Source: Promethearchaeota archaeon
GTDB taxonomy: Archaea > Asgardarchaeota > Lokiarchaeia > Sigyniarchaeales > SOKP01
Assembly (NCBI GenBank): GCA_019058445.1
Contig: JAHPZA010000006.1
Location: 544,001-608,000, forward strand
Direction: 5' to 3'
Length of the DNA: 64,000 nt
Numbering within the stretch: position 1 is the first letter of the stretch; each line of letters begins with the position of its first letter. A program made the translations under genes and the position numbers. The notes beneath the pieces are model-generated. The model saw only the letters and a program-made list of their open reading frames with translations. It was not told where the DNA came from and did not search any database. Shown here one piece after another: positions 17,975-23,905 of the stretch.

Positions 17975-18099
17975 AGCAATGTGTCCATAACTTTTCTTTA
18001 AAAGATTTTGAACCTCTCAAATCTATTATCGGTCATAAAAGTTTAATTTAATTATATTCCTATCTTAATTAATTAAATAAATGGAGAAAATCAAAAGAA

Positions 18100-19311
18100 A
18101 TGAAAGCTGTAGAAATATCTGCTGAATGGTCTCCAAAACCGAGTTTTAAACTCGGTTCTAAAGATATTGATGGCAAACTGACTTATTTAGGTTCCCAAGT
18201 ATGGAAAAATCCAGTAGTAACGGTTATTGACGATAAACCGATTCCAAAAATCAAGCCAAATGAAGTTCTATTACAAGTGAAAAGATGCGGAATATGTGGT
18301 TCTGATGTTCATATGGCTCAATCATATGATGATGGATATATCTATTATCCGGGATTAACTGCGTTTCCTGCAACCCTCGGTCATGAGTTTGCTGGTGAAG
18401 TAGTAGAAGTTGGCAGCCAAGCAATAAATAAGAGGACTGGCAAATTATATGAGAAAGGTGAACCTGTAACTGTGGAAGAAATGGTGTGGTGCGGTGAATG
18501 TAAGCCATGTTGTGACGGATTCCCAAACCATTGTGAAAGATTGCAAGAAATAGGATTCTCAATTGATGGAGCTTTTGCTGAATATATTGCTGTCCCTTCT
18601 AAATTATGTTGGAGTTTAAAAAAATTGGAAGGAAAGTATGAAGATATATATAAAATAGGCAGTTTAGTCGAACCAACTTCGGTAGCTTATAATGCTGTTA
18701 TAGAAAGAGGGGGAGGGATTAGACCGGGTGAGAATGTTGTTATTTTAGGAGCTGGTCCAGTCGGTTTGGCTTCTGCTCGTATTTTGAAAACTGCAGGAGC
18801 TGCACTTTGTATTGTTTCTGAGCCTAACGAGCATCGAGCAAAATTTGCTAAAACAATGGGTGCTGATTATACAATTAATCCTCAAAAAGAAAACTTTGTA
18901 GAGAAAGTAAAGGAGTATACCGATAACGATGGAGCTGCTTTATATCTTGAGGCAACAGGACTTCCTCAAGTAGTTACAGAGGATATTCAAAACTGTATTT
19001 GGGAATGTAAATCCGTCAATAGTACTGTTGTTATTGTGGCAAGGGCAGAGCAGAGAATGCCTGTTTGCGGTGAATATTTTCAAGTAAGAAGAGCCCGAAT
19101 TGTTGGTGCACAAGCTTAAATAGATCTCCTATTTAAAATGTATGGCCACAGCGGGCACGGAACCTTTCCAAATGTAATTAGTTGTATGGCTGCTGGAATG
19201 GACATGACACCATTGGTTACAAAAGAGATCTCATTAGATGATGTACCAGAAAATTTAAAATTACTTCAAACGGATAGGGAAAATTGCAAAATTTCTGCCA
19301 AAATTAACTAG
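18100..19311 (+). CDS. iolM: scyllo-inosose 3-dehydrogenase (Zn-dependent MDR); join(18100..19113,19144..19311), 393 aa after removing a 30-nt insert
   Basis: Motifs CGICGSD, LGHE, CGECKPCCDGFPNHC and GAGPVG. The expected IVGAQ-GHSGHGTFP junction is split by an in-frame 30-nt insert containing TAA. The downstream part is intact to TAG at 19309-19311. Confidence 0.85.
19114..19143 (+). other. Putative 30-nt BHB-type mRNA intron in iolM
   Basis: Sequence gcttaaatagatctcctatttaaaatgtat. Contains an 8-bp stem ttaaatag/ctatttaa, central helix gcac/atgt (3 of 4 pairs), bulges AA|G and AT|G, and exon stem tggt/gcca. Cutting at these points gives CAA-GGC (Q-G). Confidence 0.75.
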
Positions 19312-19316
19312 ATTTT

Positions 19317-21485
19317 TTAAAAATCATCTATTTTTTTTTGATTTTCTTTTTCATATTTATGGATTTTATTAAATTCTACTTTTAGTTGAGCATGGTTTTC
19401 TAAAAATTTCTTTAACTCTTTTTTATGATTTACTTTACAATAGTTAGAAAGCTTAATTTTCAAATCTTTTAATTCCCTTAAATTGGATGTAATATTGTTT
19501 TTCGTGACAACAATATTATTTATTACTATGTTATGGAAGATTTTTCTTTCTTCTTCGTTAAAATCCATTATTTCAGCAAATAAGTCATGTCGGATTATTA
19601 TAACCCTTTTAGAATACAAATTTCTTTCTTTTTCCGAAATTTTAGCATTCTTAGGAAAATCTATAACTTTTAAAGGCATATCTGAAATACCAATAATAAA
19701 AAGTAAAGTATAAGGTGTATAATATTTTCTAGCTTTATCTAAGATATTTTCTTCATTCAAATTACTAGTAAAATCGAATAAGATAATTTTATATTTAAAC
19801 AAATCTAATTTCAATTTAACAAGATTATCTCTAATTTTTTGAGTGAAATCTTTATTGACTATTAATAATCCATCAATTCGGTAGTTATAATTAAGAAATA
19901 TTACAATTTCAGAATAATATAGACTTCCCAGTTTCCTGGTCATTAAAAAATTGATACATTTATGAGAAAGAATACCTATATTTCTATATTTAGCAAAATA
20001 TGTATCGTTAAAACGGATGTCATATAAGGTAGGATTGAGGATTTTTTTCGCAATATCAGTTATAGGTCGTCTACTTACCCCATATGCCTTAGCAATTTTA
20101 GTTAGAGATCTTCCATTTTCAAAATCTCTAATCTCATTAACTATTTCGGAAATATCATTTATTAAATCTATTTTTATACCAATATTATCACTTATCACTT
20201 CTATAGAGATTCCAAGCTCCAAATCATTAATGATTTTATCCCTAAGGTCTATATTAGATAATGTGTTATAAAAACCCAAGAAATTAGCAATTTTTTGAAT
20301 TTTTTTTCGTGGTATATTATATTTTCTGGCAATATCCACGGGTACCCATTTATCTATTAACATCCTATATAATATACAATTTATAATTTCATTGTTCCTG
20401 TTGATTGAAACTACTTTTTTTATGGTTTCATCATAGTCAATGTCTTGATTTTTTGTCCAAGTCTTAAAATCACTTATAATCTTAAAACTATGAATAGGGC
20501 GAATTAAATACTTATCAGATTTAATGCTTAAACTGTACTCTTTTAATAAAAATTGTAATTTAGGATTATTAAAATTCTGAAAGCTAATTTCTGTTATTTT
20601 ATCATCTAATATATCCTTAGCAATCTTCATTATCTTTTCTTTAGTAATTATATCTCGTCCTCTCTTAAGGAGCTTTATATATTTCGAGACGGTTGATTTT
20701 GAAATGCCTGCTCTTTTTGCTATTTGTCTGGCACTTTCTTCTGTTTGAATGATTCTATGTACAACAAATTTTACAATCTCAGAATTTCTATTAATTATTT
20801 CACATTTTTTTAGAATCTCATCTTTATTCAATTTAGACGAATAACCATCTAAAATATTTATTAATTTAGATTCATCAATATTTTTTATCCATAGTGCAAA
20901 CTCTCTTGTAATTCTAACCACATTATATGGAGAGTTAGTTCCTGATATATTTCGATAATATTTTAGTAATCTCTGAAATTGGGGATGAGTAAAATTTTTA
21001 AATTCTATTCTTTCAATGTTTTCTGCTACTTTAATTATATAATTGTCGGAGAAAGTATGTTTAAATCGATTATCAAATTTATTCTTAATTACAATTTTAG
21101 CTATTTGATTTAAAGTTGAATCAGTCATATGAAATTTTTCCTTCAATTCTGTTAATGAAACTCCAAAAACGAAATCAATAATATCTAAAACTAGAAGGAA
21201 ATGATCTTCAATTGTTTTAAAATTAACGTTGCGCCTATCAGTTTGTATTCTCGAACATTTATATTTATTGACAAAATCATGAAATTTATTATCAATTTCC
21301 AAGAAAATTTTTTCATATGTTGGATTTTTGAATAATTTCTTATTTCTTCTTATCTTAATGATATCATTTAAAATATGAACGAATTTATAGGTTTCTCTAA
21401 TATTCAACTCTTTTTTTAAATTTATAATAAAATGATTTAATTCCAATATTAGTTTTTTCCGTTCAAATGATATTCTTTTTACCAT
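19317..21485 (-). CDS. Multi-HTH protein with C-terminal PD-(D/E)xK-like nuclease domain and PIP box (putative free-standing endonuclease)
   Basis: HTH-like motifs SLTELKEKFHMT, SARQIAKRAGISKSTVSKY, PVDIARKYNIP, SIEVISDNIGI and SLTKIAKAYGVS. Nuclease-like stretch GILSH..SE..RIDG..LFDFT..DKARKY. Ends in QKKIDDF. Confidence 0.6.
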   Translation of the reverse strand: MVKRISFERKKLILELNHFIINLKKELNIRETYKFVHILNDIIKIRRNKKLFKNPTYEKIFLEIDNKFHDFVNKYKCSRIQTDRRNVNFKTIEDHFLLVLDIIDFVFGVSLTELKEKFHMTDSTLNQIAKIVIKNKFDNRFKHTFSDNYIIKVAENIERIEFKNFTHPQFQRLLKYYRNISGTNSPYNVVRITREFALWIKNIDESKLINILDGYSSKLNKDEILKKCEIINRNSEIVKFVVHRIIQTEESARQIAKRAGISKSTVSKYIKLLKRGRDIITKEKIMKIAKDILDDKITEISFQNFNNPKLQFLLKEYSLSIKSDKYLIRPIHSFKIISDFKTWTKNQDIDYDETIKKVVSINRNNEIINCILYRMLIDKWVPVDIARKYNIPRKKIQKIANFLGFYNTLSNIDLRDKIINDLELGISIEVISDNIGIKIDLINDISEIVNEIRDFENGRSLTKIAKAYGVSRRPITDIAKKILNPTLYDIRFNDTYFAKYRNIGILSHKCINFLMTRKLGSLYYSEIVIFLNYNYRIDGLLIVNKDFTQKIRDNLVKLKLDLFKYKIILFDFTSNLNEENILDKARKYYTPYTLLFIIGISDMPLKVIDFPKNAKISEKERNLYSKRVIIIRHDLFAEIMDFNEEERKIFHNIVINNIVVTKNNITSNLRELKDLKIKLSNYCKVNHKKELKKFLENHAQLKVEFNKIHKYEKENQKKIDDF

Positions 21486-21641
21486 ATTTTTTTATTTTTA
21501 AATAATCAAGAGTATAATTTAATGGTCTAAAAATCATCTAACGTTTTTAATACTAACAGTAACATAATTTATTTATTTTTAAAAGAAAACCAGATATGAA
21601 TTGAATATTAAATTTTGTTTTAATTAGACTAATCAATGAAG

Positions 21642-21685
21642 GGACATATTGGTCATGGAACGCTTCTTATGTGATTTCTTGTATA
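21642..21685 (+). pseudogene. Degenerate relic of the start of iolM exon 2
   Basis: gga cat att ggt cat gga acg ctt ct- tat gtg att tct tgt ata = GHIGHGTLxYVISCI, versus GHSGHGTFPNVISCM in the functional copy. Confidence 0.8.
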
Positions 21686-21694
21686 TTTACTTCA

Positions 21695-22477
21695 TTAATG
21701 ATAATAGTCTATAAATTCTCCTTCGATTTTCTTAAAAGGAATTAGCTTAAATAATTCTTCGAAAAGATAATTATAGGTTTCTAAATCAAAAATTTTAAAC
21801 TCAAATGAGTATTTCTGAAAATCTCCTTCATCTAAATTGTTAAAATAATCAAAATATAATCCAATTTTATAATAATCTGTATAAGTGTGATCGACAGTTA
21901 TTGTTTTAATGTTAAATATATTGACAAAAATATATTTTTCAGTTAAATTAAAATTTTTTTTTGAATACTTAGATTTCAATTCTAAATAATTCTTAAGTTT
22001 CTTTTTCGGATAATTTTGAATCCATCTTTTATTAGTTAATATTTTATCTCTTCTAGTATCTGTTAATTTTTTATTTAAACCATATGTTCTGAATAAAATC
22101 CTTTCATCTCTTTCTAAATGATCGAATATTTCTGTTCTTGCTAAGATCATATTAATGCACTTAAGAACTGCAGGTATTATTTTTTTTTTAAAGGATTTTT
22201 TTGGCACAGCATAACCTTGCTCCCTTCTTCCTTTATAAAATATGTTTAATACACCATTTTCGACTTTAAATATAATCTTAAATAAAAAGTTCTTTGTAAT
22301 TAATTTTAATGTTGTCGATAAATGTTCACGAGGGCCATATTCTTTTATATTATAGCGAGATCTTTTAGTACCATAAATATTTGCTGTAATATTTCTCACA
22401 AATTCATCAAAAACTTCATTGATATCCTTCAGATATTTGTCTAGTCTAACAATTAGTTCTGGCTCTTCTTCCATCAT
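21695..22477 (-). CDS. Hypothetical protein (orphan, AT-rich)
   Basis: 260-aa ORF with no recognisable motif. Confidence 0.65.
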   Translation of the reverse strand: MMEEEPELIVRLDKYLKDINEVFDEFVRNITANIYGTKRSRYNIKEYGPREHLSTTLKLITKNFLFKIIFKVENGVLNIFYKGRREQGYAVPKKSFKKKIIPAVLKCINMILARTEIFDHLERDERILFRTYGLNKKLTDTRRDKILTNKRWIQNYPKKKLKNYLELKSKYSKKNFNLTEKYIFVNIFNIKTITVDHTYTDYYKIGLYFDYFNNLDEGDFQKYSFEFKIFDLETYNYLFEELFKLIPFKKIEGEFIDYYH

Positions 22478-22551
22478 CTTTCGTACAAATTTTTATAAAA
22501 AATGAATTGAATTCAAACTATTTGTTTAAAGTTAAAAAGAAATTAGAATTT

Positions 22552-22686
22552 ATAAATGCGATGGCAGCGGGTATGGATATGACACCCATGGTTACCAAAG
22601 AAATTAGTTTAGATCAAGTTCCTGAAAATCTCAAGCTTTTACAAACAGATCGAGAAAATTGTAAAATTTCTGCGAAAATAGCATAA
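22552..22686 (+). pseudogene. Displaced second copy of the iolM 3' end
   Basis: (INA)MAAGMDMTPMVTKEISLDQVPENLKLLQTDRENCKISAKIA*. 38/41 aa and about 93/126 nt identical to 19186-19311. Confidence 0.9.
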
Positions 22687-22727
22687 AATTTTGTTTAATT
22701 TCTAAATCTCTCTTTTTTTAATTACTC

Positions 22728-23795
22728 TTAAAACCTATAATCTGGTAAAGGTTCTTCAAAAACCCAGTGAAGTTCTTTAGGTAAATCATGATAATCCACT
22801 TGTTTTATGATATCCGTAAAATCTCGGCTGTTAAAGGTATTCCAAAATATTATCGTCTTATTTTTAATGTTTGGTTTGTTTTTATGGACGAAACCTAATA
22901 GCGCTGCAAATGTTTTCCCCGAATAAGTGGGCTCAAGAATAATATCTTCACCATTTTTTAAGATTTTAATAGCTTCAATACATTCTGGTGTTGGAATCCC
23001 ATAATCAATTCCATAATATTCCTCATTATAATGTAAATGCTCAAAAGTAATATCGGATATGGTATTACCAAAACTGTTTATATATTTTATAGTTCTATTG
23101 GATAACCGCCGTATTGCCCTGAAATTACAATCTCTCGAATAGGACACTTGTATAGCATGAATATTGGTCTTTAGTCCAGCAAGTTTTATTCCTAGCGTTA
23201 AACCTGCTGCCGTTCCAGCCGAAGCAGTCGGAACAAAAATATAATCTGGCTCAGGTATTTCTCCATTATCAACTTGATTTTTTAATTCAAACGCGGCATC
23301 TATATATCCTAAAGTCCCTAATGGATTACTGCACCCTACTACCATGTAGTAAAAATCATCAGTTTTAGGAATAGCATTGATTGGATAATAAAACTCGGTT
23401 TTATAATACAAATCTAATAATAAATTATCCCTCACGAAAGTAGAAACTGGTTGATCCATCATAACTGCTACAGGTTTCAATTTTAATTGATCGCAAAATA
23501 TTGCGTTTGCAACACATTGATTTGATCCAATGGTTCCTGCTGTGAGTATTTTTTTATAGTTCTGATTTAGAGCATCTGCATAAATAAATTCCATCTTTCG
23601 AGATTTATTACCTCCATACAGTGGAGAAGTAATATCGTCACATTTTACCCAAAGTGAGTTAATACCCAACTTGTCTTCTAATTTAGTTAATTTTTTGACT
23701 GGTGTCTGTGTAGGTACTAACTTCATCCATGGGATCTTTCCTTCAAGGTCGGGATATTTTTCAAATAATAGCGGTTTGCTTCGAGTTTCAGACAT
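22728..23795 (-). CDS. D-cysteine desulfhydrase / ACC deaminase family PLP enzyme
   Basis: Motifs LWVKCDD..YGGNKSRKMEF, GSNQ, ASAGTAAG and LEPTYSGK. Confidence 0.85.
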   Translation of the reverse strand: MSETRSKPLLFEKYPDLEGKIPWMKLVPTQTPVKKLTKLEDKLGINSLWVKCDDITSPLYGGNKSRKMEFIYADALNQNYKKILTAGTIGSNQCVANAIFCDQLKLKPVAVMMDQPVSTFVRDNLLLDLYYKTEFYYPINAIPKTDDFYYMVVGCSNPLGTLGYIDAAFELKNQVDNGEIPEPDYIFVPTASAGTAAGLTLGIKLAGLKTNIHAIQVSYSRDCNFRAIRRLSNRTIKYINSFGNTISDITFEHLHYNEEYYGIDYGIPTPECIEAIKILKNGEDIILEPTYSGKTFAALLGFVHKNKPNIKNKTIIFWNTFNSRDFTDIIKQVDYHDLPKELHWVFEEPLPDYRF

Positions 23796-23905
23796 TTTTC
23801 TAATCCAAATTTGTTATCGATCATATTAAAATTATGATTTTACATAAAATTTGGGATTACAAAAAAATTTCTAAAAAAATATCCAGCTTTTCCCGTTAAT
23901 CAAAC

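Follow-up and report, generated by a model that had tools for sequence, protein, structure and literature searches.

How does a gene for a metabolic enzyme come to be broken by a stop codon near its 3′ end, to be followed within a few nucleotides (nt) by a gene of opposite orientation, and to have parts of a second 3′ end of its own lying farther downstream? This question is raised by iolM, named scyllo-inosose 3-dehydrogenase by NCBI and encoding a zinc-dependent dehydrogenase (Pfam ADH_N and ADH_zinc_N), in a stretch of 64,000 nt from contig JAHPZA010000006.1 of a Promethearchaeota archaeon with a genome of 4.6 Mb in 10 contigs. This whole stretch is called the window here, and positions count from its first letter. 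The DNA belongs to an Asgard archaeon, and the proteins nearest to those it encodes bear the labels Promethearchaeota, Lokiarchaeia or Hodarchaeota. The iolM frame is open from 18100, meets a TAA at 19117–19119, reopens in the same frame and ends at 19311. An earlier note on this DNA, made from the sequence alone, had described, in this order, iolM exon 1, a 30-nt insert, exon 2, a convergent gene for a protein of 722 amino acids (aa), the beginning of an exon-2 relic, an orphan gene and the remainder of the relic, and all of these elements are indeed present where it had placed them (Table 1). The evidence leans towards a selfish, horizontally moving gene-conversion cassette that is specific for one site in iolM and consists of an intron with about 45 nt of flanking exon, an imported 3′ exon (exon 2′) and a gene for a protein with multiple helix-turn-helix (HTH) modules. 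In what follows, comparison loci are labeled L### and genomes G###.

An intron of the bulge-helix-bulge type in iolM

Homologs of exon 1 of iolM are 81–94% identical to it. Intron-less IolM homologs, of 392–393 aa and up to 94% identical, read without a break through ...RARIVGAQGHSGHGTFPNV... (VGAQ|GHSGHG), and because they are contiguous across this site the window iolM contains exactly 30 extra nt. Copies of the insert were gathered by a pattern scan of public genomes and metagenomes and by a survey that covered 135 genomes from the same family. Fourteen distinct sequences from other assemblies carry the same insert at the same site, with lengths of 30, 29 (the L007 type) and 28 nt (L026), and it is therefore not a product of chance. 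All copies share one structure, in which an outer exon helix (UGGU/GCCA) is followed by a 3-nt bulge, a central helix of 4 bp formed by exon GCAC with intron GUGU, GUGC or AUGU, a second 3-nt bulge and a hairpin of 7–9 bp. In the window copy the central helix is GCAC/AUGU, the bulges are AAG and AUG, and the hairpin has 8 bp. The insert is thus a bulge-helix-bulge (BHB) intron of the type cut by EndA, and the minimum-energy fold of the L003 copy reproduces this structure.

The pairing is conserved across the alignment (A3, with helices at columns 7–10/48–51, 11–14/41–44 and 18–26/32–40), since 89.5% of its cells are paired in the BHB register vs 34–49% when the partners are slid, the central helix reaching 98%. 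Compensatory changes were found in five pairs, with 14 cells changed on both sides, and the covariation score was reached by none of 500 shuffles. These double changes are confined to the hairpin within the intron, and the exon helices vary on a single side only. The predicted cuts fall after the second nucleotide of the bulge on both sides (CAA|G and UAU|G) and would yield ...GAQ-GHSGHG..., as in the intron-less homologs. Exact removal restores the frame in the 28-, 29- and 30-nt versions alike, and the occurrence of the two shorter lengths makes in-frame read-through impossible for some copies. Among the carriers exon 2′ shows a ratio of nonsynonymous to synonymous substitution rates (dN/dS) of 0.03–0.06, equal to that of exon 1, with synonymous sites saturated, and in these carriers the introns and the nuclease genes have themselves diverged.

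The same genome encodes both EndA (PF01974, 68 bits) and the ligase RtcB (PF01139, 574 bits). Judged from these data, the intron is very probably spliced from the iolM mRNA, the host EndA cutting and RtcB joining, so that iolM would stay functional. Of the host-spliced intron that the earlier note had proposed, the BHB with its compensatory changes and the two host enzymes are therefore in place, and the splicing itself is what we strongly infer. Gene callers do not see this, and the iolM of all intron carriers is annotated publicly as a truncated protein of 338–344 aa with a separate open reading frame (ORF) of 41–57 aa (e.g., the truncated entries P0022, P0044, P0104, P0109, and P0112).

Probable movement of the intron together with a 3′ exon

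The intron carriers are dispersed over the exon 1 tree. There the window allele is sister to an intron-less allele of genome G026 (support 100/98), L021 pairs with the intron-less L120, and L006 with the intron-less L081; 5–7 changes are needed to account for the presence of the intron on this tree. Monophyly of the carriers is rejected for exon 1 by the approximately unbiased (AU) test (p-AU 6e-5), whereas for exon 2, where the carriers cluster, it is not rejected (p 0.376). The exon-2 relics behave differently from exon 2′: those of the window and L021 group with L119, the G026 allele (98/92), that of L006 with L081, and that of L003 with L071. This affinity of the relics to intron-less sister alleles shows that they are the hosts' own old exon 2. 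The identities in the window point the same way. Its exon 2′ is nearest to the exon 2′ of other carriers (96% to L021 and 91% to L001, vs 79% to the host sister L119), and the second part of its relic is nearest to exon 2 of the intron-less L119 (84.5%), its own exon 2′ ranking only 26th (73.6%). Thus, the host's own exon 2 was pushed downstream and left as a relic. The idea that the cassette brings its own 3′ end, which had been put forward in the earlier note, is borne out by these groupings, and its comparison with empty-site iolM gave homologs that are contiguous across the site and intron-less sisters that group with the relics.

Pairwise comparisons show where the shared block begins. 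Exon 1 is only 75% identical between L003 and L006, 78% between the window and L021, and 78% between the window and L001, vs 96, 94, and 90%, respectively, for the last ~45 nt of exon 1 together with the intron and exon 2′, and 86–90, 86, and 89% for the nuclease gene or the remainder. The identity breakpoint thus lies ~45 nt before the intron. Where the BHB needs GCAC and UGGU, GCT CAA or GCA CAG is frequent in intron-less alleles, and because the ~45-nt flank with both of these motifs is co-converted with the intron, the exon half of the splicing motif is available in the new host. The step in identity and the conflict between the trees imply that the intron, a short flank of exon 1, exon 2′ and the nuclease gene move jointly into unrelated host alleles. 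We therefore regard it as highly probable, on comparative grounds, that intron, replacement exon and selfish gene form one mobile cassette.

The 722-aa protein and its family

The gene for the 722-aa protein is present in a single copy in the genome and evolves with a dN/dS of 0.23–0.31. Only seven close relatives (52–61% identity) were found among 5.8 billion proteins, and orthologs occur in only 2 of the 135 family genomes. All of those with readable contigs are encoded convergent to iolM, only 3–5 nt away from the stop codon of an exon 2 preceded by the same intron, and a second iolM 3′ end is found farther downstream at the loci with a full-length gene (L003, L005, L006, and L007). This is the arrangement of intron, convergent gene and duplicated 3′ end that the earlier note had anticipated for homologs of this protein.

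The first ~480 residues are all-alpha and contain at least four HTH modules, with residues 160–273 and 300–403 forming an internal repeat (E = 3e-11); such a region would be suited to recognizing a long target. In the whole protein Pfam detects nothing but HTH motifs. A separate conserved domain is formed by the C-terminal 240 residues; it occurs in 84 protein clusters, as a rule at the end of multi-HTH proteins, and in many copies in several genomes of the same family, some of them with internal stops. It is predicted to adopt an a-b-b-a-b-a-b fold, with Cap4, the R2 endonuclease, Avs3, BsaWI, PspGI, EcoRII, and Can2 as best structural matches. With this domain Foldseek gave nothing below an E of 0.07 against the PDB, and neither the single protein nor profiles of 8 and 26 rows gave an identification at the sequence level in Pfam, PHROGs or the PDB. 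The AlphaFold2 model of the full-length protein is poor (predicted local distance difference test, pLDDT, 61).

Across 26 diverse members the near-invariant positions are an H, an S-E at the end of strand 1, a D at the start of strand 2, the T of a D-x-T on strand 3, and K..K-Y in the next helix. In the window protein E526 and D538 belong to the near-invariant residues, the third motif is D571-x-T573, in which the threonine is invariant and the aspartate is present in most members, and K584 and K587 are conserved on the following helix. These two lysines could stand in for the lysine of the PD-(D/E)XK motif. A core of the a-b-b-b-a-b type is predicted, with conserved acidic residues at the ends of strands 1–3 and conserved lysines nearby, and may correspond to that of restriction-endonuclease-fold nucleases (Cap4, EcoRII, PspGI, and the R2 endonuclease domain); judged from the predicted structure, the domain weakly resembles PD-(D/E)XK nucleases, with the lysine shifted. 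I-Ssp6803I is a PD-(D/E)XK homing endonuclease that may be comparable to this predicted C-terminal core. All full-length homologs, as well as a paralog described below, end in Q-x-x-(I/L)-D-(D/E)-(F/Y), which is QKKIDDF here (19320–19340) and which resembles the PCNA-interaction (PIP) box, being one aromatic residue short of it.

Probable break site, proposed mechanism and decay

The relics differ in where they begin. In L006 and in the window type the 5′ end coincides with the intron site; the relic of L003 lacks the first 18 nt of exon 2 and that of L007 the first 24 nt, and that of L005 is down to the last 14 codons. Relics with differing 5′ ends appear to have arisen in independent events and in different host backgrounds. 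They are most simply understood as traces of a double-strand break at the Q|G junction or just upstream of it, and the enzyme that makes this cut in iolM alleles lacking the intron, no more than a few nucleotides from the junction, would be the 722-aa protein. A carrier allele would then serve as the template for repair, and on the left side, which is homologous, this would give a short co-conversion tract. On the right side, the copied strand would often be joined illegitimately to a slightly resected end, so that the 5′ end of the relic would mark the break. The carrier allele itself would be protected, its target site being split by the intron. Once formed, a relic could act as a right-hand homology arm in later transfers, since the window and L021 share the relic and the orphan gene at 86% DNA identity although their exon 1 is just 78% identical. 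As comparison of the alleles shows, the nuclease gene later decays, or recombination between exon 2′ and the relic removes it and a solo intron stays behind. Nuclease-driven homing with the intron as the breaker of the target is, as far as comparison of these alleles can tell, somewhat probable in our opinion.

The later stages of this scheme have counterparts in natural genomes. The nuclease domain of L006/L035 contains a frameshift; L001 retains the gene only as pieces of 206 and 108 aa and has no relic left; L057 keeps the last 160 codons of the gene; and in L021 (genome G030, of the same genus as the window) 35 nt of its 3′ end remain, joined to the orphan gene. L005, in which the gene is present, and L023 (G021), in which it is absent, are 93% identical, and L023 lacks the stretch from the end of exon 2′ to the end of the relic. 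This is a deletion between the two direct repeats, which left a solo intron. In the solo-intron alleles L050, L112 (G029), L044, L056, and L026 exon 2 still clusters with the cassette type. The intron-less L119 (G026:C63) carries a 45-nt stub of the nuclease gene (its last 12 codons, ...NEKQKKMDDF) right after the iolM stop, and the spacer after the relic in the window (22687–22727) looks like a more decayed copy of this stub. This suggests, as a loosely held reading, an earlier invasion with decay and intron loss in the genus, and then a re-invasion in the lineage of the window. The dead space beside the cassette appears to collect further insertions, i.e., the orphan gene in the window and, in L003, a gene for a 409-aa DUF4365 protein (L003:6881–8110) between cassette and relic.

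Weighing the alternatives

Several observations weigh against such a homing cassette. That the 722-aa protein cuts, and where it does so, we only infer, and the block could also be moved by plain recombination between homologous sequences following DNA transfer, with no nuclease involved. The window intron is the only one of 14 with a C·A mismatch in the central helix (19111/19138, A3 columns 14 and 41), where the rest have C-G, and splicing may perhaps be less efficient in this copy. A single metatranscriptome run shared words with this DNA (6%); it gave contigs on 18000–23900, none of which spans the junction. The stub in L119 implies that intron and gene can be uncoupled. Finally, at two further insert sites in iolM (A and B, see below) there is no adjoining nuclease gene, duplicated exon or upstream relic of the iolM 5′ end, and the locus of the paralog has no intron, duplication or split neighbor.

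The alternative that survives best, although we consider it unlikely, is linkage without drive. Here the BHB intron would be old and independent, and the 722-aa gene, a DNA-binding, defense or other selfish gene, would be a passenger that happens to lie just downstream of iolM in a variable 3′ region shuffled among Asgard lineages by homologous recombination, the relic being a by-product of one unequal event. A nuclease activity and a cut site that are both predictions, the weak fold match, the commonness of solo-intron alleles, the other 30-nt iolM introns without a cassette and the gene stub at an intron-less allele would all fit. It is, however, difficult to reconcile with the finding that each close homolog among 5.8 billion proteins sits at this one site, 3–5 nt from the stop of exon 2′, and that at least four independent relics in different hosts have differing 5′ ends clustered from 0 to +24 nt of the intron site. 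The left breakpoint, too, lies within ~45 nt of the intron, and a passenger gene offers no reason why breakpoints should converge on the intron site.

It is still less probable, and in our view improbable, that the segment is an integrative element without an integrase, with the 722-aa protein as a novel site-specific recombinase or transposase (e.g., Rpn/YhgA-like PD-(D/E)XK). In the manner of elements that target tRNA genes, a circle would then have inserted in the 3′ part of iolM and made the gene whole again with a 3′ end of its own; that the 30 nt at the junction can be spliced would be a coincidence. Replacement and displaced 3′ ends are the classic footprint of integration into the 3′ end of a gene, structural neighbors in the Atlas include Transposase_31/YhgA-like and gamma-delta transposon proteins, and the segment is a low-GC island (20–28% GC in 19.3–22.5 kb vs 30–40% in the flanks). 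However, the Pfam scan of 19.3–22.7 kb gave no recombinase family, i.e., no tyrosine or serine recombinase and no DDE domain, in agreement with the remark in the earlier note that no integrase or transposase is visible. The flanking repeats are 132 nt long, 74% identical at the DNA level (relic part 2 vs exon 2′) and diverged mainly at synonymous sites, instead of being short identical attachment (att) cores; the left junction is a variable tract of homologous recombination and no fixed site; the right junction varies with the cassette type; and the element would be tiny, with one conserved gene.

That iolM became a pseudogene after an insertion, or that ribosomes skip the 30 nt in a translational bypass like that of T4 gene 60, would fit the in-frame TAA two codons into the insert, the truncated protein annotated in all carriers and the lack of a contig over the junction in the sole metatranscriptome run found, but both readings are highly improbable and were rejected, because purifying selection on exon 2′ is as strong as that on exon 1 in carriers that have diverged deeply, the BHB is kept with compensatory changes, the 28- and 29-nt inserts restore the frame only upon exact removal, and the take-off codon CAA is not matched by the UAU or CAU before landing.

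Layout of the locus

The coordinates of the features are collected in Table 1. Around iolM lies a neighborhood of inositol catabolism, with genes for major facilitator superfamily (MFS) transporters, a pyridoxal phosphate (PLP) enzyme and a thiamine pyrophosphate (TPP) enzyme; in relatives it also contains AP_endonuc_2 and GFO_IDH_MocA genes. The first part of the relic starts exactly at the codon after the intron site. The region equivalent to the AT-rich spacer is 90% conserved between L003 and L006, up to shortly before their differing relics. For the 260-aa orphan protein, searches of Pfam, PHROG and the Atlas gave no match. ARAGORN found no tRNA in the whole window, and Rfam nothing above threshold.

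Two candidate footprints were dismissed. A 13-nt repeat, TAAAAATCATCTA (19318 and 21528), considered as a second footprint, is within chance (three matches vs 1.0 expected, with 3 reached in 9 of 100 shuffles), and a 12-nt target duplication around the orphan gene is identical at just 6 of 12 positions, so that no claim is made for it.

Table 1. Features of the iolM locus; positions refer to the 64,000-nt window.
Feature	Position	Strand	Remarks
iolM exon 1	18100–19113	+	zinc-dependent dehydrogenase; ends ...RIVGAQ
Imported part of exon 1	about 19069–19113 (~45 nt)	+	supplies BHB exon half (UGGU, GCAC, AA)
BHB micro-intron	19114–19143	+	30 nt, in-frame TAA; contiguous in homologs
Exon 2′	19144–19311	+	55 codons and stop, GHSGHGTFPNV...KIN(stop)
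Gene for 722-aa protein	19317–21485	−	convergent, 5 nt from iolM stop; HTH (Pfam)
C-terminal domain of 722-aa protein (aa 484–722)	19320–20036	−	PD-(D/E)XK-like, candidate catalytic domain
AT-rich spacer	21486–21641		156 nt, presumed promoter of 722-aa gene; right end of block
Host exon-2 relic, part 1	21642–21690	+	first 15 codons, GHIGHGTL.YVISC, 1-nt deletion (tblastn)
260-aa orphan gene inside relic	21695–22477	−	also in L021/G030
Host exon-2 relic, part 2	about 22555–22686	+	remaining 43 codons, …MAAGMDMTPMVTKEISLDQ…KIA(stop); then native iolM-PALP spacer

Comparison with known systems

In phages, collaborative homing has been described for the free-standing endonuclease F-CphI beside an ORF-less group I intron in psbA of cyanophage S-PM2, and for MobE/I-TevIII of T4 (PMC2790892, PMC6083498, PMC2988022). 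The iolM cassette would be a variant of collaborative homing. As in the phages, an endonuclease-like gene adjoins a gene that is interrupted, always at the same site, by an ORF-less intron; the two travel together, the flanking exon is co-converted, and the intron sits where the target would be. In contrast to the phage systems, which have self-splicing ribozymes in phage genomes, the intron of iolM is a BHB of 28–30 nt, presumably spliced by its archaeal host. Moreover, the cassette brings a 3′ exon of its own while the displaced one persists as a relic, and its candidate enzyme combines multiple HTH modules with an uncharacterised restriction-endonuclease-like domain for which cleavage is only predicted. 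In the literature searched we found no paper on collaborative homing with BHB introns.

In the literature searched, cbf5 is the only archaeal protein-coding gene whose transcript is documented to be spliced by the tRNA endonuclease; here a BHB intron in the pre-mRNA of Crenarchaeota has a patchy distribution and its splicing was shown experimentally (PMC2738675). The iolM intron likewise lies in a coding sequence, has a patchy distribution that implies gain and loss, and is expected to be removed by the tRNA splicing endonuclease. It differs in gene and phylum and in that its splicing is predicted, and for cbf5 no nuclease gene, replacement exon or relic has been described. The combination of a BHB intron with a selfish endonuclease is shared with the BHB introns of archaeal rRNA and tRNA genes that encode LAGLIDADG enzymes of the I-DmoI type. 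Unlike these, the enzyme associated with iolM is not of the LAGLIDADG type and is encoded outside the intron, convergent to the 3′ end of the gene; moreover, the 3′ exon of a metabolic gene is replaced, and all stages from a full-length gene to a solo intron are seen. T4 mobA with gene 60 (a 50-nt bypass element) is another case of a short, protein-silent insert that is linked to a free-standing nuclease gene. However, the iolM insert has a conserved, covarying BHB and no matched take-off and landing codons, and RNA splicing is much more likely for it than ribosome hopping.

Other insert sites and the paralog

The cassette would explain the intron at the site discussed above (site C), and iolM contains inserts at two others. 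At site A, after codon 64 (G64|I65), an insert of 30 nt occurs in five genomes of another genus (L113–L117; e.g., region L113:3300–3330) and in L050. At site B, after codon 69 (D69|V70), inserts occur in G021 (L118/L023) and L005. The inserts at both sites are 30 nt long (29 once), each with in-frame stops and a hairpin of 7–9 bp, and they can co-occur with the intron at site C. They may be fossils of similar cassettes or have another origin. The earlier note had suggested that such a cassette would be a route by which EndA-type introns spread into archaeal mRNAs; the comparison supports this for site C of iolM, and as a general route it is doubtful, sites A and B being without a cassette.

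The sole paralog of the nuclease domain in the genome (L125:6000–7829, or G000:C9:347999–349828, minus strand) encodes 609 aa and ends in QKTLDYF. It lies, together with a gene for a leucine-rich repeat (LRR) protein, in a low-GC insert of 3.6 kb between the genes for the alpha and beta subunits of a 2-oxoacid:ferredoxin oxidoreductase, a placement that resembles that of a free-standing homing endonuclease between conserved genes. The more distant members of the nuclease-domain family (L058–L061 and L094–L111) show no duplicated ends of flanking genes, with flanks of only 1.5 kb available for L094–L111.

Implications

A 2026 preprint on tRNA introns in Asgard archaea concludes that the way they arrive 'remains open', having found no link to mobile elements (10.64898/2026.10.13.758758). 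The iolM locus offers a concrete and experimentally testable route of arrival for one mRNA intron in an Asgard protein gene, with the stages preserved in natural genomes: a full gene with relic, a broken gene, a stub, a solo intron, and an intron-less allele with a stub. It also brings to light an uncharacterised family of enzymes with a long modular DNA-binding region, which has potential use as a site-specific nuclease. A much broader reading would be that the cassette represents the full life cycle of BHB-intron homing by undescribed multi-HTH enzymes with a restriction-endonuclease fold, perhaps tethered to PCNA, that the many solo introns of ~30 nt in tRNA and protein genes of Asgard archaea, those at sites A and B of iolM among them, are its fossils, and that it constitutes a general mechanism of intron gain. 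This we consider doubtful. If it were true, nuclease-driven gene conversion would be a general route by which the archaea closest to eukaryotes acquire introns.

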